Source of the DNA: a virus
Reading direction: 5' to 3' (one strand)
IMG/VR virus record: IMGVR_UViG_3300032288_004702
Span: 92,277-156,276 of that record
Length of the DNA: 64,000 nt
Below, piece after piece: positions 10,058 through 39,301 of this stretch. Every line of letters starts with the position of its first letter. The stretch's first letter is position 1. A program made the position numbers and the translations under genes. The notes under the pieces were generated by a model, which made no database searches, had not been told where the DNA came from, and saw only the letters and a program-made list of their open reading frames with translations.

Positions 10058-10377
10058 GTTTGCTCCTTTGTAAGCGGTTGGTAGGGACACCCACACAATA
10101 CCACCTATGGGACAGACTTCCCAAATCGCTTGACACCTTGTGGGGCAAGGGTTTCCGACTTATCTACTCTGTCTGTCTGCCGTGGTGCGCCCGACTTATC
10201 TACTCCTGCTGTGGGGTGGTGCGGTGGGTCTGCGCCGTGCGCCCGACTTATCTACTATCCCCCCGTGCGCCCCTCGCCCACCTCGCCCTCGGGCGTGGAG
10301 CCCCGCTGTCTTTGGGGGTCTATTCGGGCCGGGGCTTCGAGCTACTTATCTACTCTGAAAGATGAAAGGAGACTTAT

Positions 10378-10866
10378 CTACTCTTCTTCGTCTTTGGGGT
10401 CTGAGATTCGCCACAGACCTTTCTTGACCTTGATGTAAAGCGGTGATTCGCTGATGTATTTCAGCGTTGTTTGGTATGAGAAACCAGAAACCTCAACAAG
10501 TTGTTCAGTGGTGTATTCCTCGCCCTTATGTTCGTCTGCCCATGAATCAAACTGGCCGTACTTGTCCTTGCGTCGTTCGGTCTTGATAACTCCAGTATTT
10601 ACTGCGTTCAGGTGCGAGAGGTATGACTTGATAAAGGTTGTTAGTACTTCTTCGCTAACGGAGTAGTAGCGGAGCATTGCTGTCGGGTTCCCATTACACC
10701 CTTCTCTTTGCCACTTCTCCATGACATACAGCGCACGGATAGTTTCCGCTATGCGCCATCTCTCTGCTTGGTTCGCATACCTGTCTTGTGGCTTCTTGTA
10801 CTTCTTGTCAAACTCTCCGTACAGCCGTGCGTTCTCTGCGTGTACGAACTCAATAGTAAAGTTCAT
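10378..10866 (-). CDS. Hypothetical protein, possible C-terminal winged HTH
   Basis: AGGAG RBS; YTTEQLVEVSGFSYQTTLKY..KVKKGLWRI. Confidence 0.6.
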   Translation of the reverse strand: MNFTIEFVHAENARLYGEFDKKYKKPQDRYANQAERWRIAETIRALYVMEKWQREGCNGNPTAMLRYYSVSEEVLTTFIKSYLSHLNAVNTGVIKTERRKDKYGQFDSWADEHKGEEYTTEQLVEVSGFSYQTTLKYISESPLYIKVKKGLWRISDPKDEEE

Positions 10867-11168
10867 AACATTTCTCCTATTCCGACTTATCTACTACTCC
10901 CCCGCGTGACACTATCACCACTCGGACAGGCTTCCCAAAGTTGCAAACAAAAACTGAGAATCTGCAAAAAAGAGAAAAATCCTGCTGCCAGTAAGCCCTA
11001 GGGCTTGCCTTCCGCCACCGTCATTCGGATTTATTTGATAAATCTCCGCCGCCAGCTCGAGCGTCCTTCTGCGAAAAAATCAAAAAATCGTCAGAGATTT
11101 AGACAACCAAGAAACCAATACCGCGTTTCAGCGGGGCTCCACCCCAGGGAAACGGACCGATGAAGAAA

Positions 11169-11206
11169 GGGGAGTGCTACCGCCCAACCGAACGGCAACA
11201 CTCCCC
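11169..11206 (-). terminator. Intrinsic terminator
   Basis: GGGGAGTGTTGCCG-loop-CGGTAGCACTCCCC followed by TTTCTT on - strand. Confidence 0.6.
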
Positions 11207-11234
11207 GAGTAGATAAGTGAAAGGGGGGACTTAT

Positions 11235-11444
11235 CTACTCTGACCCGATGACCTCAAAGCGGTCGCCCGCTTCCTCTACAAGCCCGAGCCCGCTTCCGCT
11301 ATCCCACTGGACGAACACTGTTCCCCAGTCGTCTACGAAATCCACGGTTCCTTCCTCTCCTGCTTTCAGGAGCGTGTAGGGGTCGGAGCAGTAAATGAGT
11401 CTGACTCTCTGCCCGACTAGGTGTTCGTTTCTTGCCCGTCTCAT
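11235..11444 (-). CDS. DUF4314-like protein
   Basis: GQRVRLI..SDPY..L..GEEGTV.FVDDWGT..V.WDSGSGLGL....DRF. Confidence 0.75.
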   Translation of the reverse strand: MRRARNEHLVGQRVRLIYCSDPYTLLKAGEEGTVDFVDDWGTVFVQWDSGSGLGLVEEAGDRFEVIGSE

Positions 11445-11597
11445 GCTGGAATCTCACTTTCTGTGTTGGTGGTGATGAGAAGTATGCGAATGTCCAAGAG
11501 CAGGTCAGTCATCTCTGCCGATGACACGATGTCCCTGCCCGAACAGTGGGCTATGGCTTTGTCCACTAAGGCGACCAGTTCCTCGTCCATGACTTAT

Positions 11598-12290
11598 CTA
11601 CTCCCCTTTCTTTCGCTTGGGAGCCTTGTCAAGCATTTCCTTGTAGGCAACCGTCTTGGTGGCGAGTTGCATGTAGCCGACCGTTGCCAGCAGTGCGTCA
11701 GGCAACTTTCCGTGCGATTCAGCCTCGGGGTTCACATTCCCGACTGAACACATCGGTTCTTCGTCAAATACGGGAAGTCCGTGGTCGTCATAGCGGTACA
11801 TGCTGGTGATAGACCAAACGCATGTTGCGTTCCAGTCCACGGCGGTCAAGATGATTCCTTCACGGACTGTTGAGAACGGATTCTCCTTGTAGTCCTTCTC
11901 AAAGTCACCCCTGTCGTGGTTCTGTGCTTCCTCGTCAGTCATGTCCTGCTTTGCGTAGCCCTCAACGAGAACCATGATGAAGTCAAACGGACGAATCGGG
12001 AGAGCCTTCACGACATCCTCAAATGCGTCATAGATGTCCTCTTTGTGAATGAGGGGAATCATGGCAAGGTGGTACGGCTTTGAGAGTGAGAACTCCTGCT
12101 GGTAGTCCAAGCATGCGTCATGGTCGGGATTCGTTTCGTTGCTCTCAACGGCAACGAGAAGCAGAGGGGGACTGTCCTGCATGGGCTCGTCCTTGCACAT
12201 TTCCGTCTTGGCAAAGACGGCTCGGTTGAGCAAATCTTCCATGATTTGCTTCATGTCGTGGTCTATGACCTCGTTATCTCGTGGTTTCAT
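11598..12290 (-). CDS. Hypothetical acidic protein
   Basis: Family promoter and GAAAGGGG RBS. Confidence 0.7.
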   Translation of the reverse strand: MKPRDNEVIDHDMKQIMEDLLNRAVFAKTEMCKDEPMQDSPPLLLVAVESNETNPDHDACLDYQQEFSLSKPYHLAMIPLIHKEDIYDAFEDVVKALPIRPFDFIMVLVEGYAKQDMTDEEAQNHDRGDFEKDYKENPFSTVREGIILTAVDWNATCVWSITSMYRYDDHGLPVFDEEPMCSVGNVNPEAESHGKLPDALLATVGYMQLATKTVAYKEMLDKAPKRKKGE

Positions 12291-12410
12291 TGGTTGCCCC
12301 TTTCAGGCGGTGTGGTTGGTACTGGAAGCATACCATGTCAGGTACAGACTTCCCAAAGTTATCTACTGACAGTAGGGGTCGGTACAAGCCCCTACACGCC
12401 AGCATGATTC

Positions 12411-12632
12411 CTACTTCTCTCCGAGCAGGTTGTTTACCGAAACTCCGAGAGCAGTGCTTACGGCGAGCAGTGTTGTCACGCTCGGTGCGAATCTTCCGTT
12501 CTCAATACGATTCACCGTCTTTCGGTCAAGCCCTGCACGGTTGGCAAGTTCCAACTGTGACCAGCCCTTCTCTGACCTGTGAACTCGTACTGATTCTGAG
12601 ATTTGCTCTGTTGATGTTGCTGATGTTCCCAT
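12411..12632 (-). CDS. XRE-family HTH regulator
   Basis: RSEKGWSQLELANRAGLDRKTVNRIENG..PSVTTL..VSTALGV. Confidence 0.9.
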   Translation of the reverse strand: MGTSATSTEQISESVRVHRSEKGWSQLELANRAGLDRKTVNRIENGRFAPSVTTLLAVSTALGVSVNNLLGEK

Positions 12633-12680
12633 TTGGGATTCCTTTCATTTGGGGGGTTTATGGAGTTATCTACTCCGTTT

Positions 12681-13421
12681 CTAGATGGACGAAATGAATG
12701 TGCGTGGCGTTCTCCCTTCTTTCTTGCAACGGCGAACATAGGCGAGGTGCTTCTTGTATTCCTTCATGCATGTCAGCATGTCGTCATCGCACTGCTCCAT
12801 GAGATAGTTATTCCACTCGGAATGGGCTTCCCACCAAGTCTCCAATGCGTCATCGTCTGCGTCCTCTGCTTCTGCCTTGTCAGACAGTTCTCGCAACTCG
12901 GGGGTGAGGAAGTTTGGGTCACGCTCACCAGCCTCAATGACAGTTCCGTTATGAAACACAGACCAGCAAATGAAGGCTCGGGATTCTTCATCCGAGGAAA
13001 CACCAAAGATGAGGTTCGGATAAATCGCAGAAATCTTCTGAATCAGTCCGTCGCAGGGTGACCATGCTGATTCGTACCGTATGGTAATCATGTTTCCAGC
13101 AGGTGTCGGGTCGTCTATTTCGGGTCGGCATGCTCCCCACTTGCTTCCCCAAGTTTCGCAAGCGTCAAGGTAGCCGTCAAAGCCGTCCTTCTCTTTCGTG
13201 GCAAACACGCCCATAGTGGTCGTGACTTCTTTGCCCTCTGCGTCCTTGTGAGTAGTGGTGATTTCCTTGTGACCCCTCGGGTCAAGTGGAACGAGTTGAT
13301 TCAGTTCGTACTCGGGGTAGGAGCGTTCGTTGCTTTCTGCAACCGTTATGTCCTTGACGAACTTGGCGATTTCTCGCTTTGTCCCCATGACTGTCATGTA
13401 GTTGTAGCACCAGTTCGGCAT
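12681..13421 (-). CDS. DUF1281/YubB ferredoxin-like family protein
   Basis: MPNWCYN.., WGSKWGAC, YESAWSP; RBS CGAAAGGG. Confidence 0.75.
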   Translation of the reverse strand: MPNWCYNYMTVMGTKREIAKFVKDITVAESNERSYPEYELNQLVPLDPRGHKEITTTHKDAEGKEVTTTMGVFATKEKDGFDGYLDACETWGSKWGACRPEIDDPTPAGNMITIRYESAWSPCDGLIQKISAIYPNLIFGVSSDEESRAFICWSVFHNGTVIEAGERDPNFLTPELRELSDKAEAEDADDDALETWWEAHSEWNNYLMEQCDDDMLTCMKEYKKHLAYVRRCKKEGRTPRTFISSI

Positions 13422-13693
13422 TTGTCTTTCCCTTTCGGCTTGGTGGCTATTCGTACTGTACCACCAGTCGGACAGACTTACATAACTTCGCTCTTCCACC
13501 ACCGTCATTGAGTTATCTACTCTCGTTCGGGTCTGCGGGATTTATCTACCAGCCCCCCGACCTGCGCCTTCCCCCCAACTTATCTACTACCCCCCCGCTC
13601 CGCGCCCCCACCGCCCCTCGGGACGGAGCCCCGGCTCGGTTGCGCAATGCGGGGCTCCAAGCTGGAACCCAACGAACGAGTGAAAGAAGTTAT

Positions 13694-13999
13694 CTACTCT
13701 GCGATGGATGCGTAGATAAGTGACACGCTGGCGAATGAATGTCCAGCACCACGGCCGTACTTGATGAATCGGAGAATCCCACGGATTCCATCGGGCAGGT
13801 GCGTGAAGGCTTCGTCCGACCAGCCGTAGTCATCAAATGGAGAGTTATCTACTGGTTCAGGGGCAAACGAAACGATACGAATCTGAGGCTCGTACTCCCA
13901 CGCCCAGCGAACATTGCACTCAGCACCGACCAGGAGAAGTTCTTTGTGGAAGAACCGATGACGGAAGTACGAGATGATGAGCGAAATGTAGAGAGCCAT
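13694..13999 (-). CDS. Hypothetical protein
   Basis: Packed operon member. Confidence 0.5.
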   Translation of the reverse strand: MALYISLIISYFRHRFFHKELLLVGAECNVRWAWEYEPQIRIVSFAPEPVDNSPFDDYGWSDEAFTHLPDGIRGILRFIKYGRGAGHSFASVSLIYASIAE

Positions 14000-14006
14000 G
14001 AGTTAT

Positions 14007-14279
14007 CTACTTCTCATTCCATTCGGCATAGACACGAATCGCCGACTTTCGCCTGTCATCGGCAGGCATGTTCTTCACGAACTGTGTAAGCGAGGAAAGA
14101 ATGTCCAGAATGTCGTCCTCTGTCATGTCGTGATTCTCCGACATGGATTCGGCAAGCGTCCCATTGGCGTATTCGTCCCAAATAATCGCCATTGCCTCTA
14201 CTGCGTTCGTGGACAGCGTGAAGTAGTTGTCCCACAGCATGTCCATTACTTCTATGCGGTCTTGTTCTGTAATCACCAC
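14007..14279 (-). CDS. Hypothetical protein
   Basis: Packed operon member; stop lies in the motif. Confidence 0.55.
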   Translation of the reverse strand: MVITEQDRIEVMDMLWDNYFTLSTNAVEAMAIIWDEYANGTLAESMSENHDMTEDDILDILSSLTQFVKNMPADDRRKSAIRVYAEWNEK

Positions 14280-14521
14280 AGAACCTCTTGGTGCTTCTCG
14301 GTCGTGACTTCCTGAATCTCGGATTCGTCAATGCCGTGCTTTATCGCAATGTGCGCTTCGCTCATGTCCTCGGCGTCCTGAATCTCATCGCCTTCTGCGT
14401 AGGCGTAGGCGGTGAATGTCTCCACCTTCTCGTTGCGCTTCACGATGACCGTTGTGCGGTACAGCACTGGGTCTTTCATGAATGACCGAACCCTGTCGTT
14501 GATGGCTTCCATTCTCACCAC
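14273..14521 (-). CDS. Hypothetical protein
   Basis: AAGGAG RBS; overlaps the next gene. Confidence 0.55.
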   Translation of the reverse strand: MVRMEAINDRVRSFMKDPVLYRTTVIVKRNEKVETFTAYAYAEGDEIQDAEDMSEAHIAIKHGIDESEIQEVTTEKHQEVLW

Positions 14522-14669
14522 TGCTCCTTCTTCCAGTTGCGCTTCTCCCGTGTACGGAGAATCCTATGCCACTTCTTGCAGGAATGCTTGCTTCCACGCC
14601 CTTTGACGAAATCGCCACAGCAACCCCACGGGCAGGACTTGGCGTTCCTCTGTGAGTACATCATGTTGC

Positions 14670-14858
14670 TCACTTATCTACTCCTTCGCACTGACAGAAA
14701 TCCGAAACATCGCACTGACACCAGTCAGCAGGCATTTCGCAATAGAAGCAATACTTCTCATTGTAGGCGTTCTTGTTTGCCGGAATCATGCCACAAGTAG
14801 GACACATGGGACGGAACATATCGTCCAGCATTTCGGAGATGCGCTTCATTTCACCCAT
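14670..14858 (-). CDS. Small Cys-rich (zinc-binding) protein
   Basis: CPTC, CFYC, CQC, CQC. Confidence 0.5.
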   Translation of the reverse strand: MGEMKRISEMLDDMFRPMCPTCGMIPANKNAYNEKYCFYCEMPADWCQCDVSDFCQCEGVDK

Positions 14859-15130
14859 CAGAAATCGTCGTCCTCTTCCTCGTCCTCGTCCCAGTCGTCC
14901 TCGTAGTCATCGTCCAACTGCTGGTCCACGGAGAACCAGCGCATGACCGTCAGCAGAAGGTTGTCGTAGTTGCCCGAGGTTGCTTCGGCGTGGAAGGCTT
15001 CCACTTCGTCACGCAGACCATTCTGCTTCATGATTCGCTGGACACGCCCGAGAATGGAGAAGGCGTTGCCGTCCTCTCCAACGAGGGGAATGTTGATGTG
15101 CGGATACTTGGGTGAGGTGATGTTGCTCAT
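14858..15130 (-). CDS. Conserved phage hypothetical protein, probably leaderless
   Basis: LVGEDGNAFSILGRV..EATSGNYDNLL motif; ATG lies just after the family -10. Confidence 0.65.
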   Translation of the reverse strand: MSNITSPKYPHINIPLVGEDGNAFSILGRVQRIMKQNGLRDEVEAFHAEATSGNYDNLLLTVMRWFSVDQQLDDDYEDDWDEDEEEDDDF

Positions 15131-15448
15131 GCCCTCATCATACCAGCCGTGGTACAGGCTTCCCAAATCAGCCCTTTCAACCACCGTCAATGTGTTGCGA
15201 GTTATCTACTACCCCCCCCAGCGCGTTCCGATTTCCAAAGATTTCCACAACTCGGATTTATCTACTACACCCCCGACTGCGCCTCGCCCCTGTCCGCAGG
15301 GAGCCCCGGCCGTTGCAGGGTCCAGAATCAGGCGGGGCTCCACCCCCAAACGCCCCCACCTGACTGCCTCGGGGTGGGGACTTATCTACTCTGCTAGTTC
15401 TCCCCCCTCGCCCAACCGAAGCGAGAGGAGAGAGACCTAGTAGATAAG

Positions 15449-15760
15449 TCAGAGCGAGTGCCGACCGCCTCGGGTCTCGTATCGGGAGACCGCCTCGGTG
15501 ATGTTCTCGCAGTAGTCGCCACTTCCGAACGACCAGCCATCGGGTCGGTCTATCGCCGTCCATACGGCGAACGGGTGACGGGGGTTGTGGGGCAGGTGGC
15601 ACAGCACAGTCCACATGGCGTATGCGTCCACATCGCTCGGGCGCAGAAGCCAGCAAGCGAGAACGGTCACGGCATTGTCCATGCTGGCAGGGGTGACTAC
15701 CTCTCCCACGCTCAGGGTGCGCATGGGATAGGTGTCGGTGGGGGACTTATCTACTCCCAT
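15449..15760 (-). CDS. Hypothetical protein
   Basis: Follows the DUF3846 gene. Confidence 0.5.
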   Translation of the reverse strand: MGVDKSPTDTYPMRTLSVGEVVTPASMDNAVTVLACWLLRPSDVDAYAMWTVLCHLPHNPRHPFAVWTAIDRPDGWSFGSGDYCENITEAVSRYETRGGRHSL

Positions 15761-15762
15761 GT

Positions 15763-16215
15763 TCACGCCCCCTCTCCGTTGAGCCATGCGTCAAACTCTT
15801 CATCGGTGAAAGCGGTGATGGTCGGCGGCGTGGAAAGGACTTCCTGAACAGCGAGAGCGAGAGCCTTCATCACATTCTCGTCAGCGAGCAGGGTCTTGGA
15901 GAGTGTCTCCAAGTAGGACGGGTCGTACTGCTCGGGAACATCGTGGTTCTCTCCGTCATAGTCACCTTCCTCGTTGAGTGCGCCAAGAACGACCACATCG
16001 CCCACGAGAGGGCGACCGAACATGAGGCTTGCGAGAGCGTTCGGTGCGAGTCCGATGAGGAGTCCTTCGTCATTCACATACGCAACAAGGTCATCAGTGC
16101 GAACGCAGTCAAGCCAGCCACCACAGAGTTCGTTCAGAACGAGGTGACCGCCTTCCTCGGGAACGGTGGTGACTTCCACCTCTCCCGTGGTCTTGATGAG
16201 TAGTGCTGTTGCCAT
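15763..16215 (-). CDS. DUF3846-like protein
   Basis: LNELCGGWLDCV..YVNDEGLLIGL.PN.LAS..LVGDVVVLG. Confidence 0.75.
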   Translation of the reverse strand: MATALLIKTTGEVEVTTVPEEGGHLVLNELCGGWLDCVRTDDLVAYVNDEGLLIGLAPNALASLMFGRPLVGDVVVLGALNEEGDYDGENHDVPEQYDPSYLETLSKTLLADENVMKALALAVQEVLSTPPTITAFTDEEFDAWLNGEGA

Positions 16216-16539
16216 TGCTAACCCCTTTCAGGTTGTGTGTATCGGTGGCGACCACAGAGTACCACCATTAGGACAGGCTTCCCAAACTTATCTACCACTC
16301 CCCCGCGTTGCCCTCGCCTTGCGTGTGGGGTGGAGCCCCGGGGTGGCTGGGCTTCGGGCGGGGCTCCTGCCCCAGCCCTTGCCCCTCGCTCGGACTTATC
16401 TACTCTCCCCGAACACGCCTGTTCCCCCGTGCGCCTTGCGGACACTCGGGGGACAGACGGAGTAGATAAGTGTTGGGGTGGGGGACTTATCTACTCCACT
16501 CGGCTCGGGGGCTTGCGCCCCCTTGCCTTGCGTGTGGGG

Positions 16540-16941
16540 TCAGACCGCCTCGGACTTGGCGGTGGGCTTGACTGCGCCCTTCGCTGGGCGAACCAGCACT
16601 CGGACTGACGAGGTGACGGACACGACTGCCTTCACGACCTTTGCGGACACCTTGCCTTCCTTCACAGCCCTATCCCATGCGGAAGTGTCCACGGTGGGCT
16701 TGGTGACGGTGCGGAACAGCGGTGCGCTGATGAGTCCACGCAACTTCTCGGTGTCAAACGAACGGCGGTCGCTCGGGCTGACCTTGATGTTGAGTTCGGC
16801 ATAGTCCAGCGTGTCCACGCCGTGCTTGGCGTACACAGCCAGCAAGAGTTCACGAGCCTCGTCGTGAGCCTGCTCTGCCTGCTCTCGGGCGGTGAGTGCG
16901 TTCAGGAACGCCTCTGTCGCTTCCAATACTTCCTTCTCCAT
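16540..16941 (-). CDS. Hypothetical phage protein
   Basis: Family promoter; leader CCACCAACC..CGAAAGGGG. Confidence 0.65.
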   Translation of the reverse strand: MEKEVLEATEAFLNALTAREQAEQAHDEARELLLAVYAKHGVDTLDYAELNIKVSPSDRRSFDTEKLRGLISAPLFRTVTKPTVDTSAWDRAVKEGKVSAKVVKAVVSVTSSVRVLVRPAKGAVKPTAKSEAV

Positions 16942-17096
16942 TTGGAACCCCTTTCGGTTTGGTTGGTGGAGAACCACACGCCGTGTTGCTTGTGGCTTGG
17001 CACAAGCATACACCCCCTCGGACAGACTTCCCAACTTCGCTTGACACTTATCTACTCCCCCTAGTTCCCCTGCCAGCCAGCCCCACAGGAGTACGG

Positions 17097-17224
17097 TTAT
17101 CTACTACGCCCCCGTGTTGCGCCCACAGCCCCCCTCGGGGGCGGAGCCCCGCTGGTTTGTCGGTCAAGGCCGGGGCTTCTGCCCAGAACTGCCGTCTAGC
17201 CCGAACGGGGGAGTATTAGATAAA
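17097..17224. repeat. Complete inverted-repeat element (TTATCTAC..CCCCCG..GGAGCCCCG..CGGGGCTT..CGGGGG..TAGATAA)
   Basis: Three nested pairs of inverted boxes. Confidence 0.8.
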
Positions 17225-17409
17225 TGGAGATTTATGTTTGGGATTACGAGGGTCGGCTGGCTCGGGTTCGGGAACTGACCTGCGAGGCGAACAGGCTGAC
17301 TGCCCTTGTGCGCCGTGCCAACGAGAACACCCGTGCGAGCCTCACTCGTGGCAGTTTCAGAGTTATCTACTCCGACAGTCCTGCCCTTCCCCCGATAGAG
17401 AGTAGATAA
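17224..17409 (+). CDS. Small hypothetical protein in inverted orientation
   Basis: ATG abuts the end of the inverted-repeat element. Confidence 0.3.
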   Translation: MEIYVWDYEGRLARVRELTCEANRLTALVRRANENTRASLTRGSFRVIYSDSPALPPIESR

Positions 17410-17499
17410 GTCGTGGAATGGGGAAAGGGGCTGGCTCACCTTCTTGGCAAGCCAGCCCCTCTCGGGTGAAGTCCTCGGGGGGGGGTGTGAGGAAAGGGG

Positions 17500-17946
17500 T
17501 TAGAGGTACTTCACCACGCTGTGGTAGGTGCTGGTGGACACCACTTCTTGGTCGGACATTTCCAGCACTCGGATAGCGTTCTCCAACGCTTCCTTGTCCT
17601 GACGGTACTCCCACTCCTTGTAGAGGTCAGGTCGCTGTGGCTCTGCCACGAGGATTGCCTTCGGAACTTCCAGCACGAGTTCCACATTGGTTGTCGTGTC
17701 GTTCCTGTCGGAATGGTGACGGTAGTAGTGGGTCTCGGTTGCCTTCTTGGGCTTCGCCTTGCCGTTCTTGACGAGGGCGACAACAGCCTTCGTGAAGTCG
17801 GCTTCCCACTTGGCGTGAGCCTTCTCAAAGTCGGCTTGCGACTTGTCGTTGGTGGCAAAGCGTTCCTCACGCTCTGCGAGTGCCTTACGCAAGGCAGAGA
17901 TGAGAACGCTCACCTTCACCTTGACGCTGATGTTCTTGTTGGACAT
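17500..17946 (-). CDS. Hypothetical protein
   Basis: Family promoter, AGGAG RBS. Confidence 0.7.
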   Translation of the reverse strand: MSNKNISVKVKVSVLISALRKALAEREERFATNDKSQADFEKAHAKWEADFTKAVVALVKNGKAKPKKATETHYYRHHSDRNDTTTNVELVLEVPKAILVAEPQRPDLYKEWEYRQDKEALENAIRVLEMSDQEVVSTSTYHSVVKYL

Positions 17947-18146: not shown

Positions 18147-18154
18147 TCGGGCAG

Positions 18155-31130: not shown

Positions 31131-31579
31131 TCGCTCTTTGCTTCTTCGCCTTCGGTGTCGATGCCGGAAATAATTTCCTGAGCAATCAACTTTGCATACT
31201 TGCGACGAAGTCTCCAAATCTTTCGATTCATCTCTACAAGCTCTTTGCTCATTCGCGCTTTGATAATCGCGTCGTCATCGAACACGCCATGAATGTTAAA
31301 CAATGCGTCGTGTAGTTCAGTGTCCTCTATGAGAATGTCAGAAATCCAGCCAGCACGGTTGTCGATGGCCATCATCAACTCGCACATTCCCTCCACACCG
31401 AATTCGTCATAGAGACGGTTTACAACAATGGTGCAAAAGTGTGACCGGTACAAGCGCTTAGCCTTCTGTGATTGCGACATGAACTCAGAGAGCCACACCG
31501 CGAGTTCGCCACTAGAAAAGTCACTAACATCATCTGAGGCGGAGTCAATAAAGTCGTCATCATCGCCGTCTTCTCTCAT
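31127..31579 (-). CDS. Hypothetical protein
   Basis: GGAGG RBS. Confidence 0.6.
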   Translation of the reverse strand: MREDGDDDDFIDSASDDVSDFSSGELAVWLSEFMSQSQKAKRLYRSHFCTIVVNRLYDEFGVEGMCELMMAIDNRAGWISDILIEDTELHDALFNIHGVFDDDAIIKARMSKELVEMNRKIWRLRRKYAKLIAQEIISGIDTEGEEAKSD

Positions 31580-31629
31580 GACGCCTCCCCGTAACTAGAA
31601 CTGTACACAAATGATAACAGCGTCAATCG

Positions 31630-32655
31630 TTACACCGCTGACAAGAGATAATCCTGGGCTTTCATTTTCGCCCGAGTCACCCATGAGTTTGCACTCATTG
31701 ACGCCAGTGCTCGCTCTGTCTGCGTTGCATCACGATAATGGTCGAGGTATTCACCCACAGCGTTTACGAGTGACCAAGCGTTGTAGCCATAGTTCTTTGC
31801 GTTGTTGTCATTTACGTAAATCGCACGAACTAAGCCCATGACATCATCTCGGTTTTTTTTCTGTCTCTCCGTTGCATCTTTCGATGTTGGGAACACAGCG
31901 TCAAGTGTCTTGTCGAGAATCTGCGATGATGCTGGAACGTTTATTGACAGCAATCGCTCTGCCGTTGCTGAGAACTCTCTCGCCCACTCTGTCGAGATGT
32001 TGAGTACTTGATTCGCTTGCTCGATTGCTCTGTCGGCATTTCGGGTGTGTCGTGCAGTGAATACTCGCTTCGCTGATGAAACGCCAGCAATCACTGTGTT
32101 TTTGCACACCGCACGAATGCTGGTATTCGCAAATGTAATCGCCGTCTTCCCGTCATGTCCGTTATGCACGAGTAGATAACGCTCGATGGAGTCATTCACT
32201 CCGTTCGGGTCGATGATGAGTGCGCCCATGTCAATAGACGCAAAGAACTCACGCCCACCGTGCAGAACTCCACAAGTATCCACGACTGCGTCTCCGCCGG
32301 AAGCTCCAACAATGTCGAGTGCGTAGTCAAGACATTCACGATTTTGTTGCACCACGTAGCGCGTGCCGACAGTGGCGAGACCATCGAATGAACCATCTGC
32401 GTTCACCCGTACTGTCGCCCGTGAGTCGGGGACAAGAATCGGAGTTCCATCAGGCTGTCGTATCGGCTCGCCGTTATCGTCACATACCGCAACACGCGTT
32501 GTCACCACGTCGAAATCAGCCTGCGCCGCTTGGAGCATTGCCTCCGCCGTTTGTAGCCCTTTCATTGGTTTTCCGAGTCTGTGCCACGGAATCTCTCGGT
32601 CTGCGTACGCCATGCGCACTGTGCCGTCGTCGTTGATTTCTAGTTGATGAGCCAT
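31630..32655 (-). CDS. DUF932-family protein
   Basis: PWHRLG, YVVQQN, YLLVHNGHDG, IRAVCKNT, RHT, NAVGEYLDH. Confidence 0.85.
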   Translation of the reverse strand: MAHQLEINDDGTVRMAYADREIPWHRLGKPMKGLQTAEAMLQAAQADFDVVTTRVAVCDDNGEPIRQPDGTPILVPDSRATVRVNADGSFDGLATVGTRYVVQQNRECLDYALDIVGASGGDAVVDTCGVLHGGREFFASIDMGALIIDPNGVNDSIERYLLVHNGHDGKTAITFANTSIRAVCKNTVIAGVSSAKRVFTARHTRNADRAIEQANQVLNISTEWAREFSATAERLLSINVPASSQILDKTLDAVFPTSKDATERQKKNRDDVMGLVRAIYVNDNNAKNYGYNAWSLVNAVGEYLDHYRDATQTERALASMSANSWVTRAKMKAQDYLLSAV

Positions 32656-32867
32656 GATGTCTCCGTCTCTCTATCGTGTAGATAAATCTATCTGAAAGGT
32701 GCGCCTCGTAGGGGAAGGGAAATAATGCGGGGCTCCCGCAGGGAGGGGACACCCCCACCCCACGCAACGGGGATGTAGTAGATAAGTCTCATCTTTCGGA
32801 AGCCTGACCCACCCGTGGTACGCTGGCGGTGTCGGGGGGGACGGTCTCCCCCGACGAAAGGGGAGCC

Positions 32868-33425
32868 ATGCTCAGGATTGAGACGGAGTGCGAGTTGAGG
32901 GACGGGCGCGTCCTGTACGAGGGCGAGGTCGTCCTCACGGTGGACAGCGTGGACGGCGACTCCGTCACGGGCTGGTTCCGCCCCGACTGGTGGGACCGCA
33001 ACACCGCCCGTGCGCTGGTGCTGGACACCCCGTGCAAGTACGAGGGCAAGCCCGTGCCGTGCGACGAGAACGGCGAGTGGACGAACACGCTCGCCTGCGA
33101 GTGCGCCACCTGCCTCGTGGACGAGTTCCCGTACGACGACTGGGGCTGGCACGGTGCTGGCGCAGAGGTCACCCTGACCCTCCCCAAGACGGAGGCGAAG
33201 AAGGGCGACCGCATCGTCGTCGGAGTCCTGCTCACCCGAGAGAGGCTCACGGGTGGGTACGACCGCCACGGCATCACCAGCGGACTCTCGTCCACGACCT
33301 ACTGCGGAAGCGTCTCGTGGGACGAGTGGCAGGCGTTGGAGGCGTGCGAGACGACCCGAGGCTGGCTGGCGTACGACGCACAGATTCGGGAGGACGAGAA
33401 CCCGACCGAACACAGGGACTGGTGA
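32868..33425 (+). CDS. Hypothetical protein
   Basis: Family promoter and CGAAAGGGG RBS. Confidence 0.6.
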   Translation: MLRIETECELRDGRVLYEGEVVLTVDSVDGDSVTGWFRPDWWDRNTARALVLDTPCKYEGKPVPCDENGEWTNTLACECATCLVDEFPYDDWGWHGAGAEVTLTLPKTEAKKGDRIVVGVLLTRERLTGGYDRHGITSGLSSTTYCGSVSWDEWQALEACETTRGWLAYDAQIREDENPTEHRDW

Positions 33426-33713
33426 CGGGGAGAGTAGATAACCCCGAACGGAGGGACCGCACACCCACCCCACAGGCGCACACCCACACCCACGCCACAC
33501 GCCCGAACACCCACGGCAACCCACGCCACACAGGCAGAGGGCAAACCGTGCGAAGCACGGTGCGCCAGCCCAACGAGCGAAGCGAGGCGGGAGAAAGCGA
33601 GGAAACGAGCGGGGCTCCACCGGAGCAAGGGCGCACTGGCGCATGGCACACGGGGTGGTAGTAGATAAGTCGGCAGGTTGGGAAGGCTGTCCCCACGGTG
33701 GTACAGTTCAGGC

Positions 33714-34919
33714 ATGAACGAAATCTCGTCCGCCTCACTTGCCTTTGACCTCCACACACAGTTGGTGGAGTACCGCGCCAGTCACCCGACGGCCGACCGA
33801 CTCCTACACCACGGCTACTACCGCGCCTTTGTCGGCGGAGAAACCACCGACACCGTGTCACGCGCAACGCTGGAAGTGGCGATGAAGGAAAGCCACACTT
33901 ACCACGAGGTCGCGCGAACGCTTGACGACGCGATTCTCACCCGTGCTGACACCGTGTTCCTCACCGACGACCTGCGCGAGTTGGTCAAGACGGCAGAGGC
34001 CACAATGCCCGACGAGGTTCTGTTTGACACGGACATTTACACCCCGTGCGGATTCATCGTGATGGAAACGCCACTGCGATACGATGTTCTGTCGCGCACG
34101 AAGGCAAGCGAGTTTGAGAGCCTGCTCGCTCTCGTTCACAAGCACGGCGGAACCGTGACAGGGACGCGCACACATGAAACGCCCGACCAGTTCGGTGATT
34201 ACATCGGCGCGGAACACTGGGAGGTTCGCGCGTTCGCTTGGGCTGATGTAGATAAGGTCAAGCCCGAAGCACTGGCCGACATTGAGAAGCGATTCGGCAC
34301 GAAGTCTCCCGAGTACGCGTTCGCACGGAGCGTGATGCTCGCCCCCAACGGGGACAAGGGACTGTATGTCCGCGTGTTCGGCTCCATGACGGCCACAAGT
34401 GTGGACGGAGTGACCATTGAGGTTCCTGCCATCTCGCGCGAGTTGCGACTGATGGACATCTACGCATTCTTCTACGGGGAGGACGGACTGCGCGAGGAGA
34501 CGGCACTGTACGAGCCGACAGGACGCGTGACGGACGAGATGCTCAAAGCGTCGTGGGAACGCTCACGCTCCATTCGTCGTTTCCTCGTCGCTCTGTTCCG
34601 CTTGATGGAGGAGTATGTGGAAGTAGATAAGTCTCCTCTCCATCGCGCACACGGCCGTCGTGCCTCCCGTGTTGGTCGCGGTGGCGACTTGCGGAATGTC
34701 ACGATTCTCTCACTGCGTCGCGCGCTTGGCGATGACGAAGATGGAGGCGGTGTCGGCCACAAGGTCACGCTCGCCCATCTCGTCCGTGGCCACTGGCGCA
34801 ACCAGTGGTATCCATCGCAAAGGCAACACCGCGCGAAGTGGATACGCGCACACCGTCGCGGTGGGAACGCTGGCGATGTGGTGACCGCCCGTCCGCGAAT
34901 CATCAAGGTAGACCGATAG
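33714..34919 (+). CDS. Hypothetical phage protein, probably leaderless
   Basis: C-terminal HLVRGHWRNQW..WIRAHRRG motif; ATG 7 nt after TACAGT. Confidence 0.75.
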   Translation: MNEISSASLAFDLHTQLVEYRASHPTADRLLHHGYYRAFVGGETTDTVSRATLEVAMKESHTYHEVARTLDDAILTRADTVFLTDDLRELVKTAEATMPDEVLFDTDIYTPCGFIVMETPLRYDVLSRTKASEFESLLALVHKHGGTVTGTRTHETPDQFGDYIGAEHWEVRAFAWADVDKVKPEALADIEKRFGTKSPEYAFARSVMLAPNGDKGLYVRVFGSMTATSVDGVTIEVPAISRELRLMDIYAFFYGEDGLREETALYEPTGRVTDEMLKASWERSRSIRRFLVALFRLMEEYVEVDKSPLHRAHGRRASRVGRGGDLRNVTILSLRRALGDDEDGGGVGHKVTLAHLVRGHWRNQWYPSQRQHRAKWIRAHRRGGNAGDVVTARPRIIKVDR

Positions 34920-34987
34920 AGCACGCGACACCTTATCTACTCTCACCCGTGGCCAGTGAGTGAGAGTAGATAAGTGTCAGAGCGTCG

Positions 34988-35179
34988 CTAGGCGCGCTTG
35001 GCGACGATGGAGTATTCCACCGTGTCCTCTCCGATGTTCGGAGCAGGGAAGTAGAGCGCGAGGCCGAGGTACTTCTCTGCGTCGCGCTTGGTAGCGAACA
35101 CCTCGTTGAGAACGGTTCGGCTGATACGGCCGTCCGTGAGACGCGCGGTGCGCTTGATGATGAATGTTTGTGATGCCAC
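34988..35179 (-). CDS. Small hypothetical protein
   Basis: Family promoter, CGAAAGGGG RBS, GTG start. Confidence 0.55.
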   Translation of the reverse strand: MASQTFIIKRTARLTDGRISRTVLNEVFATKRDAEKYLGLALYFPAPNIGEDTVEYSIVAKRA

Positions 35180-35418
35180 TGTGAACCCCTTTCGTTCGGC
35201 AACACCAAGACAGTACCACACATCGGACAGACTTCCCAAAGTGGTGGTGCGCTCCGGTGGGAGCCCCGCCCCTGACGCCCTCACTTCGTTCGGTTGTCCT
35301 CGCGCTGAACGAGGAGAGTCGCGCGCAACAGTGAGAGTAGATAACGGCAGAGACACCGTGCCGACACTTATCTACTCTCATAGACGGTGCCGACACGGTG
35401 CGTGCGCCGTGTACCGAA

Positions 35419-36126
35419 TCAGTACGCGTGCGGTGCGTCCACTGTCATCGGAGCGCGACACGCACGGCAGACGGGAGAGTCTGAATCGCTCTCACCGTAA
35501 AGCGGTGTTTCATCGTCTGCGAGTGAGTACCCGTGAACGAGTGACAGTGCCTCGCCGTAGACAACTTCTACCGAGTGTTCTTCATCGTTCGGACAGTGAA
35601 CCGAATAGTTCGCGTTGTCGTACGGGAACGACTCTGCCATGTCCACCGTGATACGGAACGCGCGCGGTGCCGTGTATCCACCGCGAACATCGCAACCCCC
35701 GTGAATCTGTAAGAGTGTGAACACTTCTCCGTCATGCGAGAATGTCACGCCTTGTAGCGTCTGCGCGAGCGAGTCCTCACCGTTGTAGGTGTTCCATGTG
35801 TGCGCGCTGTCGTCCTTCTCGAACGCGAACGACTCCGCGAGAGAGAGCCAGCCGTCATCGGGATTCTCCGAGCAGAACGCGCGGAACTCTGCGTCAAGCG
35901 TTGGCGCGTACTCCAAGCGTTCCGCGAGATAGTGATAGACCGAGAGCGTCACGCCCCAGCGGTCTGCCCATGCGCGCGGTTGCGCGTCCCACTCTGTGAG
36001 CGTGCGTCCAGCGTTGCGTTCCCAGTGTCGCCCATAGGCACCGCCACTGTCCAAGATGTGCCGTCCCGTAGGCTCCGTGAGTAGTTCCGCGAGAACCTCG
36101 CGCGTGCGTGTGGTGAGTGCGTCCAT
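35419..36126 (-). CDS. Conserved phage hypothetical protein
   Basis: HILDSGGAYGRHWERN; NTYNGE; LQIHGGCDVRGGYT. Confidence 0.75.
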   Translation of the reverse strand: MDALTTRTREVLAELLTEPTGRHILDSGGAYGRHWERNAGRTLTEWDAQPRAWADRWGVTLSVYHYLAERLEYAPTLDAEFRAFCSENPDDGWLSLAESFAFEKDDSAHTWNTYNGEDSLAQTLQGVTFSHDGEVFTLLQIHGGCDVRGGYTAPRAFRITVDMAESFPYDNANYSVHCPNDEEHSVEVVYGEALSLVHGYSLADDETPLYGESDSDSPVCRACRAPMTVDAPHAY

Positions 36127-36133
36127 GACTTAT

Positions 36134-36442
36134 CTACTTCCGCTTGTAGGGGTAGGAGGGGTGCTCGCGTCGCCCCTTGTCACGGAGCGACGCTATTTCG
36201 TTGCGCGCCCACAGTGTGGCGAGCGTTCCGCCGATGGCAGAGCCGACCGTCAGCGCGATTCCGAAGAACAGGTCAAACGCGTTGCGCGTGATGTACGCCT
36301 TAGCGATGGCGAACACACCCGTGAGCAGTGCGAATGTGAACATGCCGACGACGAATCGGTAGATGAAGGTCGGATACTTGTCGTCCAACCAGTTGGTGAC
36401 CCGTGCGTCTGCGCGGTCAAGAGTGTTGATGATGCTTGCCAT
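36134..36442 (-). CDS. Membrane protein (2 TM)
   Basis: Family promoter; hydrophobic segments. Confidence 0.65.
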   Translation of the reverse strand: MASIINTLDRADARVTNWLDDKYPTFIYRFVVGMFTFALLTGVFAIAKAYITRNAFDLFFGIALTVGSAIGGTLATLWARNEIASLRDKGRREHPSYPYKRK

Positions 36443-36625
36443 TGGATTCCCTTTCCGTTTGAGGTGGCACCATGAGCGTACCACGAAGGGGACAGACTTC
36501 CGAACTTATCTACCACTCCCCCGACACAGGGAGCACCCCCCCTGCCCTCCCTGCGGGAGCCCCGCTTTGAGTTGAGTGACGACAGTCGAAATAGCGTGTT
36601 TCTGAGCGAGGGGGGGACTTATCTA

Positions 36626-36880
36626 CTACTCGGTGTCACCGCGTAGGTAGTTCGCGCGCATGACCTCAACCGTGGCTTCGCCGGTCTGCTCGAATGTCGT
36701 GATGTCGTAGATAGCACCACAGCGGTAGCAGAGATACGAACGGCCGTCCCACGCACCCGTAAGGCTTGGCTCGACCATCTCTCCTGACGACAGACAGGTG
36801 TAGAAACCGTCAATGTCGGGCTCGTTGCCACACTCGCATACCATCCAGTCTGCGACAGTGCGTTCGATGTTTAGTGTCAT
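36626..36880 (-). CDS. Small zinc-finger protein
   Basis: CECGN..CYRCG. Confidence 0.6.
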   Translation of the reverse strand: MTLNIERTVADWMVCECGNEPDIDGFYTCLSSGEMVEPSLTGAWDGRSYLCYRCGAIYDITTFEQTGEATVEVMRANYLRGDTE

Positions 36881-37344
36881 TGCGTCTCCTTCGATAGTTC
36901 GTCACGAGCATAGGGGTTGTGTGGCTCGTCGTCATGCCACTGTGCGTCAGGCCATGCGGTACGCGTGTGTACCCCGTAGACGTTCTTGCCAAAGATGGCA
37001 GTTCCCTGCCAAGCGTGGCGACAGCACGGCAGTGCGTCGTCTCGTCCTGCTGGGTGGCAGTTCTGACCAATGTCTTGGGCGAGGAGGGGGAAGACATCGA
37101 GGAACTTCACTACACAGTCGTGACACAGAATCCACTCACGGCTGCGCTGGCTTCCTGTCAGGACACCAACGTTGTCATCGAATCCACCGTAGTAGCCGAA
37201 CGTGTCAAAGGGGAGCACCCAACCATGGTCGGGGTAGTGGGTCTGCTGGGTACACAGGAGACTGCTACGACAGGCTGAGCATGTCGCTGTGTTGTACTGC
37301 CTGATGAGTGGCGTGAACTCGGGTTGCTGTTGTGCTTCGCTCAT
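36877..37344 (-). CDS. Cys-rich hypothetical protein, probably leaderless
   Basis: CSAC, GYYGGFDD, LCHDC. Confidence 0.65.
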   Translation of the reverse strand: MSEAQQQPEFTPLIRQYNTATCSACRSSLLCTQQTHYPDHGWVLPFDTFGYYGGFDDNVGVLTGSQRSREWILCHDCVVKFLDVFPLLAQDIGQNCHPAGRDDALPCCRHAWQGTAIFGKNVYGVHTRTAWPDAQWHDDEPHNPYARDELSKETQ

Positions 37345-37457
37345 GACGATGACTGTACCACGAGATGTACAGGCTTCCACGTTCGCGCACTTATCTACTA
37401 CTCACCCGTAGAGCACCCGTGGCACTTGCGTCGTCCCTGCGTGGTGGCGAACGGAGA

Positions 37458-37832
37458 CTAGGAGACGATTCGTCCTGAGGTCATGCGGAGGAGAACGGCA
37501 TAGCAATACCTCCGGCGTCGCGTCGTCTCCAACTCAACCTCGTACCGTCGCCAACCGCTGAGCAGGTCGAGGTCGGCGGGGGAACGGTAGATGCCGAGCT
37601 CCATCTCCGTCTCTATCATGAGGGAGGGGAGGTTCACCTCAACACCCGTGGCACTTCGCGGTGTCACACCTGCGTCACGGCAGGCCTGAAACACTTTGGT
37701 CATGAACAGAGAGACGGCGAGCATCTGCTCCAACTCGTCCTCGTCTGTCATGTGGGTATTCGTCAGGCGTGCTACGCGGATGCTCTGATACACCTTGCGA
37801 TGAGGTATGTAGATGCCTGACACGAATGACAC
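37458..37832 (-). CDS. Hypothetical protein (start uncertain)
   Basis: ORF only. Confidence 0.4.
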   Translation of the reverse strand: MSFVSGIYIPHRKVYQSIRVARLTNTHMTDEDELEQMLAVSLFMTKVFQACRDAGVTPRSATGVEVNLPSLMIETEMELGIYRSPADLDLLSGWRRYEVELETTRRRRYCYAVLLRMTSGRIVS

Positions 37833-39301
37833 AGTACACGCTATGTGCGTGTGTGTCCCTCTATCCCCACTTCACTTCCTTCGTCTGCTTGTCGTTCGGC
37901 TCGACAGCAAGCACTTCGAGCATGCTTCCCTGCGTGAGTAGCGAGCGCACCATTGACAGTGCTTCGTCGATGTTGGCTGGGGCGTCGAGGTCATTGCGCT
38001 TGCGCACTGCCACGGTGATTCGGTATGTCTCCATGCTCAGTACCATACAGCCTTCCACAGGCGTGCGACACTCTGTGCCTGCTGAGGGGTCTGACATGGG
38101 ATGCGTCTGATGACGTGTCGTGTCCCCTCTGAGGTGGGCACGGACAGCCACACTTCCACGTCATCGCCAATGGCATTGACATGGGTGACTGTCCCTTCTG
38201 ATGAGAGGTCGTTGATGGATGAGGTCAGTAGGTCTGATGCGTTCATGGGTATGACACTACACGAGGGGTGGTACATGTCAAGGGGTGTCATGATGATGAG
38301 TGATGTCAAGGGGGTAGGGTTACCCGTATGACACCCGTGGCACCTCGCAAACCTTCACGCTCTACCTCTCCCCTCATGCGCCTATGGGTGGGGTGGGCTA
38401 GGTGGTGCGATGCTCAGTGGGTGAGGTGGGTGCGCTGGGTCGATGGCATCGGGCTCGAACCTGTTGCGCTGACCATTGCCATTGTGTGCCTCGTCATGGG
38501 GGTAATGGTGTTGCTCTCTATCGGGCGTGTGTAGAACTACCCGTGGCACCTGCGCTCATCGCAAGGCTTGACACACTGCGCCTCGCATGGCGCAACGATG
38601 GGGGTGGGTTATCTACTCGGGTCGGTGCGTGATGCGTGCGTGCCGGCGTGCGTGCGTGTCACTCGCTCGTGCCTGCGTGCCATCGCCATGCGCGACACTC
38701 TCGCTTGCTCTGCGCCTTGCGTGCGTCGGGGATAGTGCTTGCCTTCATGCGCACACCATCGGCAAACGAACGACGTTCGTCTGCTGACCACTTCGGTTGT
38801 GCGATGTGCTTGCGCTTACTCATGCGTCAAGTGTACCTGTGATGTCCCTGCGTTCGTGCGTGCTTGCGTGTGCGTCGCACTGCGTGTGCTGACGTGTTGC
38901 GTTCGACTGCGTTGCTCTTGCGTGATGCGTTCGCATGTCGCACTGCGTTGCCTGCTTGCTGTGGGCGTGTCGCATCGCGTTGCCTTCGCACACGCCTGCG
39001 CTCACCCAAGCCCGAGCCCGAGGTGTACGCACCTGCTCTCGCCTTGCGTGATGCCGACTTATCTACTACTGCCCCACTCGCTCGCGTCGCCTGCTGAGGC
39101 GTGCGCTCACCACTGCGTTGCGCGCTCGGATGAGGGTGCGCATGACGTCGCTGAGAGGGGGTGGTCAGGAGCCCCGCGCGCCTTGACCGCGTGTCCCCAC
39201 AGCAGGGGGGAGCCAAATTTGAAATTTTTGAGTTCAACTTTTTTTATATAAATTTATCCAGCCCCCTTGTGTTTGCCCCCTGTGGGGTGTAGTCTGCCGT
39301 C

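Follow-up and report, generated by a model that had tools for sequence, protein, structure and literature searches.

Nested inverted repeats in a phage early-gene array, read as half-elements of a repeated expression module

The array and its genomic setting

Virus record IMGVR_UViG_3300032288_004702 is a 156,276-bp contig with a terminal overlap, rated complete (100 per cent) with direct terminal repeats; the window analysed here is its last 64 kb, and all positions refer to it. Positions 8000–39500 of the window hold a run of small genes with a GC (guanine plus cytosine) content of 57 per cent, against 48 per cent elsewhere in the genome. Between the cassettes of this array lie the subject of this study, nested inverted-repeat elements of 110–140 bp and their one-armed versions (Table 1). 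A preliminary description of the window had offered two readings of them, as integron-like recombination sites or as promoter-proximal nucleoprotein platforms. We give about an even chance to a reading in which the elements form the upstream part of an early-gene expression module, with boxes that would dock trans-acting factors and with modules that would also act as crossover points.

A WhiB-family transcription factor is encoded at 196–546 (+) and is kept in all lineages. This gene supports an actinobacterial host and the use of host sigma-A polymerase; the host is thus probably actinobacterial. Transcription by the host RNA polymerase is supported, and sigma region 2 (PF04542) had no match in the phage genome. 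A single-subunit T7-like RNA polymerase (PF00940) had no match either, a result that is uninformative because the control search was also blank. At the array edge, on the opposite strand, a 134-amino-acid protein with an HA domain and a sigma70 region-4-like helix-turn-helix (HTH) is encoded at 6326–6730 (+).

Hereafter, Q denotes this phage and S (G006), R1, and R2 denote related lineages. In every lineage the GC content of the array exceeds that of the backbone (array/backbone 0.571/0.477 in Q, 0.531/0.458 in S, and 0.493/0.445 in R1; the genomes compared include G006, G001, and G005). The excess could reflect GC-biased repair after frequent recombination, or cassettes of foreign origin.

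Table 1. Repeat elements, boxes, and promoter cores of the array (window positions).
Feature	Position	Strand	Remarks
8-mer field, 115 copies	1197–39066	mixed	GTAGATAA, extended GGAGTAGATAAGTC; GC-rich 38-kb array
Complete element, two divergent half-elements	17097–17224		shared palindrome 17145–17177; outer box variant TTAGATAA
Complete element	18023–18145		palindrome 18068–18099; arm 18023 abuts promoter 17994–18017 (-)
Complete element	19947–20083		palindrome 20004–20036
Complete element	21123–21244		palindrome 21169–21198; arm 21123 precedes promoter 21088–21111 (-)
Complete element	22746–22876		palindrome 22800–22829; left arm faces + ORF 23016–23252
Complete element, transcription divergence point	24817–24944		promoter 24788–24811 (-) on one side; + promoter and ParA-like gene 25026–25628 on the other
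One-armed half-element	10248–10336	-	full palindrome 10299–10336
One-armed half-element	13580–13656	-	palindrome 13627–13656
One-armed half-element	15258–15339	-	palindrome 15302–15339
One-armed half-element	16288–16365	-	palindrome 16334–16365; abuts promoter 16259–16282; alignable orthologue in the S lineage
One-armed half-element	18913–19001	-	palindrome 18972–19001
One-armed half-element	23906–23985	-	palindrome 23953–23985; abuts promoter 23877–23900
One-armed half-element	25689–25773	+	palindrome 25689–25722; precedes promoter 25786–25809; arm box 25766
One-armed half-element	26732–26808	+	palindrome 26732–26764; abuts promoter 26813–26836
One-armed half-element	27624–27705	+	palindrome 27624–27662; gene 27760–28122 next, without conserved promoter
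Lone-C-box half-element	32728–32785	+	before promoter 32798–32821; C-box kept at orthologous S site
Lone-C-box half-element	33610–33668	+	before promoter 33681–33704; C-box kept in S and R2
Lone-C-box half-element	36506–36564	-	before promoter 36478–36501; C-box kept in S and R2
Degenerate module	35213–35268	-	lone C-box directly before promoter 35213–35236; no 8-mer
Degenerate module	39059–39176	-	arm box 39059; C-box about 100 nt upstream
Inverted box pair	27548–27586	+	perfect 16-bp stem, 7 nt between arms; first copy holds the TAG stop of gene 27219–27557
Similar inverted box pairs	11209–11238, 13690–13719, 16462–16494, 17363–17409, 19044–19111, 21524–21568, 23258–23306, 26661–26706, 34932–34974, 35337–35375
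Junction box	11594–11601	-	TAG ends gene 11598–12290; GGAG just before box; next ATG 3 nt after box
Junction boxes of the same layout	14003, 22065, 27208, 36130
Promoter core	10098–10121	-	GGAAGYCTGTMC-N6-TGGTAY
Promoter core	12330–12353, 15140–15163, 16259–16282, 17994–18017, 18810–18833, 19901–19924, 20593–20616, 21088–21111, 22598–22621, 23877–23900, 24788–24811, 35213–35236, 36478–36501, 37355–37378	-
Promoter core	25786–25809, 26325–26348, 26813–26836, 32798–32821, 33681–33704	+

Anatomy of the half-element

The putative functional unit is a directional half-element of roughly 90 bases that precedes almost every early-gene cassette. It consists, in order, of the C-box CGGGGCT (usually with an inverted copy, AGCCCCG, 16–25 nt upstream), about 29 nt, a run of five G (G5), four bases, a box of the AGATAA type, about 5 nt, and the promoter. 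Read along transcription, the space between two cassettes comprises a gene stop, one box or an inverted pair of boxes, the palindrome, about 29 nt, CACGGGGG, four bases, GTAGATAA, about 5 nt, and the promoter; within this stereotyped expression module the element occupies the far-upstream segment, from about -40 to -135. The pattern CGGGGCT-N20-45-GGGG-N1-9-AGATAA occurs 25 times against 0.00 expected (one occurrence, at 27573, is spurious), and the palindrome AGCCCCG-N14-27-CGGGGCT occurs 15 times against 0.01 expected, with loops of 16–25 nt. Like the 8-mer, nearly all copies of both patterns fall in the GC-rich 38-kb array. In most copies 26–31 nt separate CGGGGCT from the G-run, and the spacing is therefore non-random. 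Consistent with the preliminary description, spacings are similar between copies and the sequence between the boxes is unrelated, as only the boxes align. That description had found only three conserved box pairs, but the conserved parts also include a directional motif in the loop, a YCYGCCCC flank, the abutting promoter, and the leader.

The promoter core, GGAAGYCTGTMC-N6-TGGTAY, is present in the array in 20 near-identical copies, always on the gene strand. We take it to be of the sigma-A type, with TTGGGA as -35, an 18-nt spacer, and the extended -10 TGGTACNNT. A conserved leader, which ends in CCGAAAGG, stands directly before the ATG. Some modules also carry a second oriented motif, TGACGGTGGTGGAAGA, between the arm box and the promoter (4976–4992, 13490–13506, 15170–15190, and 18850–18870); it opens with the -35-like TTGACG and is among the commonest 8-mers in distant relatives without the Q-type promoter core.

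All six complete elements lie where they had first been placed. Both halves of each follow the same order, each on its own strand, and the 110–140-bp 'nested inverted repeats' are therefore best read as two directional half-elements back to back, not as one structure. Three or more of the six have a second arm directed at a gene on the opposite strand, namely the open reading frames (ORFs) 17224–17409 and 23016–23252 and the ParA-like gene 25026–25628. ORF 17224–17409 is conserved in three lineages and ORF 23016–23252 in the S lineage (67 per cent identical). Specifically, the left arm (TTAGATAA) of element 17097–17224 abuts the + ORF 17224–17409, and its right arm faces a - promoter near 17030. 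A fourth arm, at 21237, faces the short ORF 21362–21508, which has no counterpart in relatives; this fourth complete element is probably also situated at a divergent gene pair. The ORFs 23016–23252 (+) and 21362–21508 (+) are small, rich in cysteine (CxxC pairs), and transcribed against the array from second arms. A tandem array of four copies of TTTCCCAC occupies 18146–18190, between a complete element and the next box pair.

The one-armed coordinates given earlier stood in part. True arm boxes are found at 10248, 13580, 15258, 16288, 18913, 23906, 36506, and 39059, whereas the other six positions are something else: an upstream box or an unrelated copy lies at 25651, 26696, 27607, and 32677 (the real arms are at 25766, 26801, 27698, and 32778), and 33609 and 35259 are C-boxes, the element at 35259 being without an 8-mer. 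Three to five elements beyond 32 kb have CGGGGCT alone. At three orthologous promoters, a lone CGGGGCT with no inverted partner is kept in Q, S, and R2 (one in S only) while its flanks diverge.

In the 15 palindromes at 10299–27662, the base beside each stem arm is identical, not complementary (AGCCCCG-C...C-CGGGGCT or -G...G-), which makes the loop a directional unit. The loop occurs in both orientations in Q and almost always in one in the R lineage.

The 13-nt box

The 8-mer TTATCTAC/GTAGATAA is present in 115 copies in the window, against 0.87 expected from shuffles, and extends to a 13-nt box, GGAGTAGATAAGTC, with the consensus (G)GA-GTAGATAA-GTC. The whole genome has 119 copies, all but four of them within positions 1–40000 of the window; these four are the only copies in the other 92 kb, and two of them lie in the 600 bp that precede the window. 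Co-orientation with local transcription holds for about 90 of the 115 boxes, which are on the - strand below about 24950, on the + strand from 24950 to 34930, and on the - strand again from 34930 to 39100. Of the 25 reverse copies, almost every one either serves as the second arm of a complete element or has a forward copy no more than 60 nt away, with which it forms a stem of 13–16 bp just 3' of a gene.

At least 14 genes end at the TAG within a box. At no fewer than six operon junctions the next ATG stands 3 nt past the box, with GGAG as a possible ribosome-binding site. Boxes that include a ribosome-binding site and lie 3–8 nt before a start codon number about 10–14 of the 115 in Q and 2–4 of 30–44 in relatives. 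About 17 boxes abut the promoter core, and the gap between the box and GGAAG is mostly 4–6 nt in three lineages. Two other roles for the box were rejected: it cannot be the -10 of leaderless mRNAs, as the ribosome-binding site lies inside the box and the ATG is too near, nor a primase or replication-oriented signal, as its orientation flips three times, tracking transcription.

Some ten 8-mers are intragenic, far above chance, and lie mostly in the only open frame (Val-Asp-Lys). Those at 8557, 9271, 9744, 19729, 25317, 31071, 34248, and 34623 are co-oriented with the gene, and those at 29758 and 32172 are not. The copies within a gene for 522 amino acids are kept in relatives. The intragenic boxes may work as internal sites or may be left over from the fusion of cistrons.

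Related lineages and the variable box

We searched IMG/VR with pattern scans and a protein-anchored scan; 122 loci matched in all, the family comprises at least 80 related loci, and the boxes were compared across 80 loci anchored on the AAA_5 protein (71–98 per cent amino-acid identity). R1 and R2, which are 67–79 per cent identical to the window at the nucleotide level, carry 47–70 copies of GTAGATAA and the arm box GAGAGATAA. S, a complete 158-kb genome of about 78 per cent identity, has almost no GTAGATAA; its arm box is GGCAGGTAA, and it has 80 copies of GTAGGTAA, against 5/1 for the control. When orthologous intergenic regions are aligned, AGATAA in Q corresponds to AGGTAA in S, the sites having changed in concert. 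At least nine lineage-specific boxes occur among the 80 loci (for example, AATAGATAAGT, ACTAGATAAGT, CTAATAGATAACT, and AAGGATAATGTAA). Each is strongly over-represented, with 25–45 same-strand copies per 20 kb and a strand bias of 4–5:1. CGGGGCT/AGCCCCG and a second motif, TGACGGTGGTGGAA, are common to far relatives, and the same module grammar was found in two distant loci read directly.

Copying from site to site hardly accounts for 40–115 short sites that changed in concert and whose flanks are unrelated. From these patterns we infer that each lineage would have its own sequence-specific reader of the variable box, with a second, conserved reader for the constant boxes. In the protein with the HA domain and sigma70 region 4, the recognition helix (LSRQRVHQI) shows no change across 20 lineages that differ in box variant, and this protein is accordingly a candidate for binding an invariant motif, TTGACGGTGGTGGAAGA or CGGGGCT. 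Neither it nor WhiB was retained as reader of the variable box, since the DNA-facing parts of both stay the same in these lineages while the box varies.

The fixed order and spacing of the boxes, the abutting promoters, the lone C-boxes, and the concerted lineage-specific change of the box fit the spaced protein-binding sites or nucleoprotein platforms suggested in the preliminary description.

Cassette order and exchange

Gene order is not collinear among the relatives, and junctions fall in the modules, so the weaker claim, a link between the elements and cassette shuffling, withstands the refutation test that the preliminary description had set. Q and S carry five cassettes in the order A B C D E, and in R1/R2 the order is D A B E C. 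The orphan ParA/MinD-like ATPase cassette (25026–25628, +), which adjoins the divergence-point element, lies on the other strand and elsewhere in the array in the R lineage. The cassette at 25766–26348 is inverted and relocated in S, with homology that extends from the upstream box (25766) to within the next promoter. R1 and R2, which are 86 per cent identical, differ by a 438-bp cassette insertion or deletion (indel) with its junction inside a directly repeated promoter-plus-box module, and by a 1.57-kb indel with its junction inside a palindrome. Of 43 homology-block ends, 16 have a box no more than 12 nt away; the expectation is 5.6 (p < 0.0005), or 8.0 in a control limited to box neighbourhoods (p = 0.0035). 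No single part of the module holds all the junctions, and loops at orthologous sites do not change orientation from one lineage to another.

The simplest reading of these comparisons is that cassette exchange would be driven by homology, through the repeated modules and without a dedicated integrase. Modules that are repeated 20–100 times would thereby also be crossover points, and the palindromic C-box pair offers homology in both orientations, which may explain the inversions.

Alternative explanations

The alternative that survives best, which we consider possible though doubtful, is that the repeats act at the RNA level. The palindrome and the inverted box pairs would be hairpins of read-through transcripts (terminators, insulators, processing sites, or stabilizers), with the 13-nt box as a signal at translation junctions (stop, ribosome-binding site, spacer, and start), recognized by an RNA-binding protein of the phage or by a small RNA, as has been proposed for the start-associated sequences (SAS) of Cluster K mycobacteriophages. 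The stop codons supplied by the box and the GGAG-preceded starts described above agree with such a role, as do the strict tracking of transcription by box orientation, the presence of a forward partner able to pair with nearly every reverse box, and the lower-GC palindrome of the R lineage, which lies between A-rich and T-rich runs as a bidirectional terminator would. Complete elements can fold as single strands (z-scores -2.1 to -4.6), a result that follows from the box pairs alone.

However, only about 10 per cent of boxes are within 8 nt of an ATG in any lineage, about 20 boxes are upstream of the -35 and hence outside that promoter's transcript, and the conserved lone C-boxes have nothing to pair with. 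Folding energies of the sense and antisense strands are alike (-7.6 vs -7.95). Covariation is absent from the stem flanks and arms, save for one position of the flanks beyond the invariant 7-bp stem, and that position tracks lineage. Read from the sequences, the four bases between G5 and the box in one arm do not complement those in the other. For 11 complete elements, drawn from three genomes, duplex energies were no more favourable between the left and right spacers of the same element than between non-cognate spacers (mean -17.2 vs -18.4 kcal/mol; permutation p = 0.74). The palindrome loops of 16–25 nt, followed by CCTGCCCC in Q, lack a U-tract there and would make poor intrinsic terminators; partial T-runs occur in the R lineage only. 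An intrinsic-terminator consensus scan gave no excess (19 vs 16.0 expected), and a search of positions 1–41000 against Rfam at a permissive threshold returned one tRNA and nothing else. Twelve of the 24 half-elements have no opposing arm. The conserved lone C-boxes, the spacers and flanks, and the equal folding of the two strands argue that the elements need not fold.

Several points weigh against the reading we prefer, that boxes in duplex DNA dock proteins. Most one-armed elements keep the palindrome, whose loop in the R lineage has a constant length of 17 nt and carries a directional motif, which could point to a true RNA or single-stranded DNA hairpin. The inverted box pairs are strong stems directly after genes, and an RNA-level role for them is possible. 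No reader protein was identified: the sole clear HTH candidate near the array is the HA–sigma70 region-4 protein, which cannot be the reader of the variable box because its helix is invariant, and Pfam and PHROGs left nearly all of the approximately 40 array proteins without a name and revealed no further DNA-binding protein. The coincidence of block ends with boxes may partly mark a shift in selective constraint instead of crossovers.

It is improbable that the elements are sites of integron-like or REP/RAYT-like site-specific recombination, in which the nested repeat would fold as single-stranded DNA and a dedicated enzyme would cut, rejoin, and so move the cassettes. The resemblance lies in the nested imperfect inverted repeats, which are similar in length to attC sites and have conserved boxes separated by free sequence, in the changed order and orientation of cassettes in relatives, where block ends fall at boxes, and in a box that starts with GTAG, like REP sequences. 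Yet the complete genome has no tyrosine recombinase (PF00589, for which the control matched 14 of 14 reference genomes), no serine recombinase (PF00239), and no Y1 HUH transposase (RAYT, PF01797), all of which bear on the search of the rest of the genome proposed in the preliminary description. RecT, ERF, and RecA are likewise absent from the genome; with all of these searches negative, no recombination enzyme can be named. Furthermore, of the 24 half-elements, 18 either belong to no two-armed element or lack cognate pairing between arms, each cassette is served by a promoter of its own, junctions also fall inside promoters and the palindrome with no single fixed point, and orthologous loops have the same orientation across lineages.

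On the features compared, two specific identities do not apply. The elements are not attC sites, given that there is no IntI, that only the conserved boxes pair, and that about 20 cassettes each have the same promoter core and leader, not a common Pc; nor are they REP/REPIN sequences mobilized by RAYT, given the lack of a Y1 HUH transposase in the genome. Most elements are one-armed, and the integron analogy, although attractive, is unsupported and is corrected here.

Very little probability attaches to the elements being miniature mobile elements (MITE- or REPIN-like) that were co-opted after spreading across the early region. The six complete elements do have terminal inverted repeats of about 17 nt, and there are many copies in intergenic DNA, but internal sequences are unrelated between copies, so that recent copying did not take place; orthologous copies are alignable at the same sites across lineages and are thus old and stable; orientation is tied to the promoter; and no transposase was found. 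Neither the R1/R2 nor the Q/S comparisons revealed presence/absence polymorphism of whole elements with target-site duplications.

A Chi-like, host-specific hotspot, in which the oriented 8-mer would modulate a host end-processing nuclease and stimulate exchange at cassette borders, with variants in different lineages because hosts differ, accounts for an asymmetric, strongly over-represented, and oriented octamer, for its lineage-differing variants, and for homology blocks that end near boxes, but is highly unlikely in view of the confinement of the 8-mer to a 38-kb array rather than the whole genome, the flips of its orientation with transcription in three blocks, its fixed spacing from the -35 and G5, and its place at stop/start junctions.

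Comparison with known phage repeats

By analogy, the module would be functionally closest to the PeSL (promoter-early stem-loop) of T4-like phages, a composite terminator/promoter motif with a stem-loop just upstream of a sigma-70-like early promoter that is followed by a Shine-Dalgarno sequence and a start (PMC2839356; PMC4122927). PeSLs are repeated between the small ORFs of a plastic non-structural region, the junctions of insertions, deletions, replacements, and displacements lie in the motif, and the exchange is attributed to recombination between the repeats (PMC2839356; PMC4122927). Similarly, 15 palindromes here lie upstream of a repeated promoter core in a 38-kb array of small genes, indel junctions lie in the promoter-plus-box module or the palindrome, and cassettes are relocated between Q, S, and R. 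Unlike PeSL, the module described here is far longer (about 130 nt upstream of the -35, with at least four ordered boxes), its C-box is conserved even without a stem partner, and it has the additional 13-nt box, whose 115 copies switch sequence between lineages. The two have no sequence relation, and the host here is probably actinobacterial.

The stoperators of Cluster A mycobacteriophages number a few dozen copies and are distributed genome-wide, whereas the 115 copies of the box are in one 38-kb array. The stoperators, which are bound by a repressor of the L5 gp71 type, are asymmetric sites of about 13 bp that sit in short gaps between genes, for the most part oriented alike with respect to transcription; one class is found at the early promoter, and the motif has genome-specific variants (PMC9283540, PMC6550527). 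The box resembles them in being asymmetric, about 13 bp long, present in many copies, co-oriented, located at junctions and at early promoters, and variable between lineages. It differs in that it also forms inverted pairs and the arms of an upstream platform, and in that this phage has no repressor, integrase, or other sign of lysogeny, with the orphan ParA-like gene as the sole hint.

The SAS of Cluster K is a 13-nt asymmetric repeat with a ribosome-binding core, possibly with the upstream stop inside it, found in one orientation in the non-structural half of the genome, and its companion, the extended SAS (ESAS), is an imperfect inverted repeat with a variable spacer and a subcluster-specific consensus (PMC3203893). 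The function of SAS/ESAS is unknown, and its authors favour DNA-binding sites for the inverted repeat (PMC3203893). The 13-nt box resembles SAS, with the inverted repeat in the role of ESAS. In contrast to SAS/ESAS, only about one-tenth of the boxes are directly before a start codon, the inverted repeat is about 45 nt upstream of the box instead of adjacent to it, and the copy number is 6–10 times higher.

A 17-bp palindromic repeat of Cluster O mycobacteriophages, with an invariant 7-bp inverted repeat, has more than 30 copies, mostly between genes or at their starts in the non-structural arm, and a direct repeat of this palindrome flanks a single-gene indel (PMC4351075). An invariant 7-bp inverted repeat and a gene indel at the repeat are also found here, but the spacer is 3 bp there versus 16–25 nt here, and the Cluster O repeat has no ordered set of boxes and no abutting promoter. 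With integron attC sites, the elements share imperfect nested inverted repeats of similar length between cassettes, short conserved boxes, and free sequence between these; here, however, there is no IntI, the attC core GTTRRRY is absent according to the preliminary description, each cassette has a promoter, and the elements are mostly one-armed, with arms that are not cognately paired.

Proposed role of the modules

Our proposal builds on features that were observed directly: the anatomy and spacing of the half-element, its orientation rule, the conservation of lone C-boxes, the lineage-specific box variants, and the junctions within modules. Boxes in duplex DNA would dock trans-acting factors, and these would turn some 20–25 cassettes on or off jointly. 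A conserved factor would recognize the constant C-box, and a factor specific to the phage lineage the variable box of 11–15 nt. Like Cluster A stoperators, the variable box is also located at gene ends and junctions, oriented along transcription. Protein binding, the identities of the readers, and the direction of the regulatory effect are extrapolated from these features. Via the repeated modules, cassettes would be gained, lost, moved, and inverted by homology-driven exchange, as proposed for T4-type PeSLs.

More speculatively, the array may be an integrase-free cassette system in which a fast-evolving, phage-encoded reader binds more than 100 co-oriented boxes at both ends of every cassette, one factor controlling the whole early array. 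A switch in box specificity might then create 'regulatory compatibility groups' that settle between which lineages cassettes can usefully pass, with the palindromic C-box pairs as orientation-neutral crossover points. We put this forward tentatively, as a rather unlikely conjecture.

Phage early regions are where genes for anti-defence and host takeover turn over fastest, and the early array described here probably consists of such genes. Co-regulation and exchange in early regions are known mainly from the PeSLs of T4-like phages and partly from mycobacteriophages (stoperators, and SAS/ESAS, whose function is still open). What is new relative to PeSL, stoperators, SAS/ESAS, and the Cluster O repeat is the pairing of a constant with a variable box, set at a fixed distance ahead of each promoter, together with a number of oriented copies that exceeds 100 per genome and natural specificity variants that number at least nine. 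The family therefore makes it testable which protein reads such repeats and whether repeated regulatory modules drive the exchange of cassettes.

Neighbouring genes

Among the approximately 40 array proteins compared with Pfam and PHROGs, the only matches were to AAA_5, ParA-like, DUF3846, DUF6011, DUF932, the DUF1281 C-domain, and SNF2. A megablast search of the array against INPHARED phages gave zero matches. The window also has ten tRNA genes (45509–48514 and 630–704), nine of which are clustered just outside the array.

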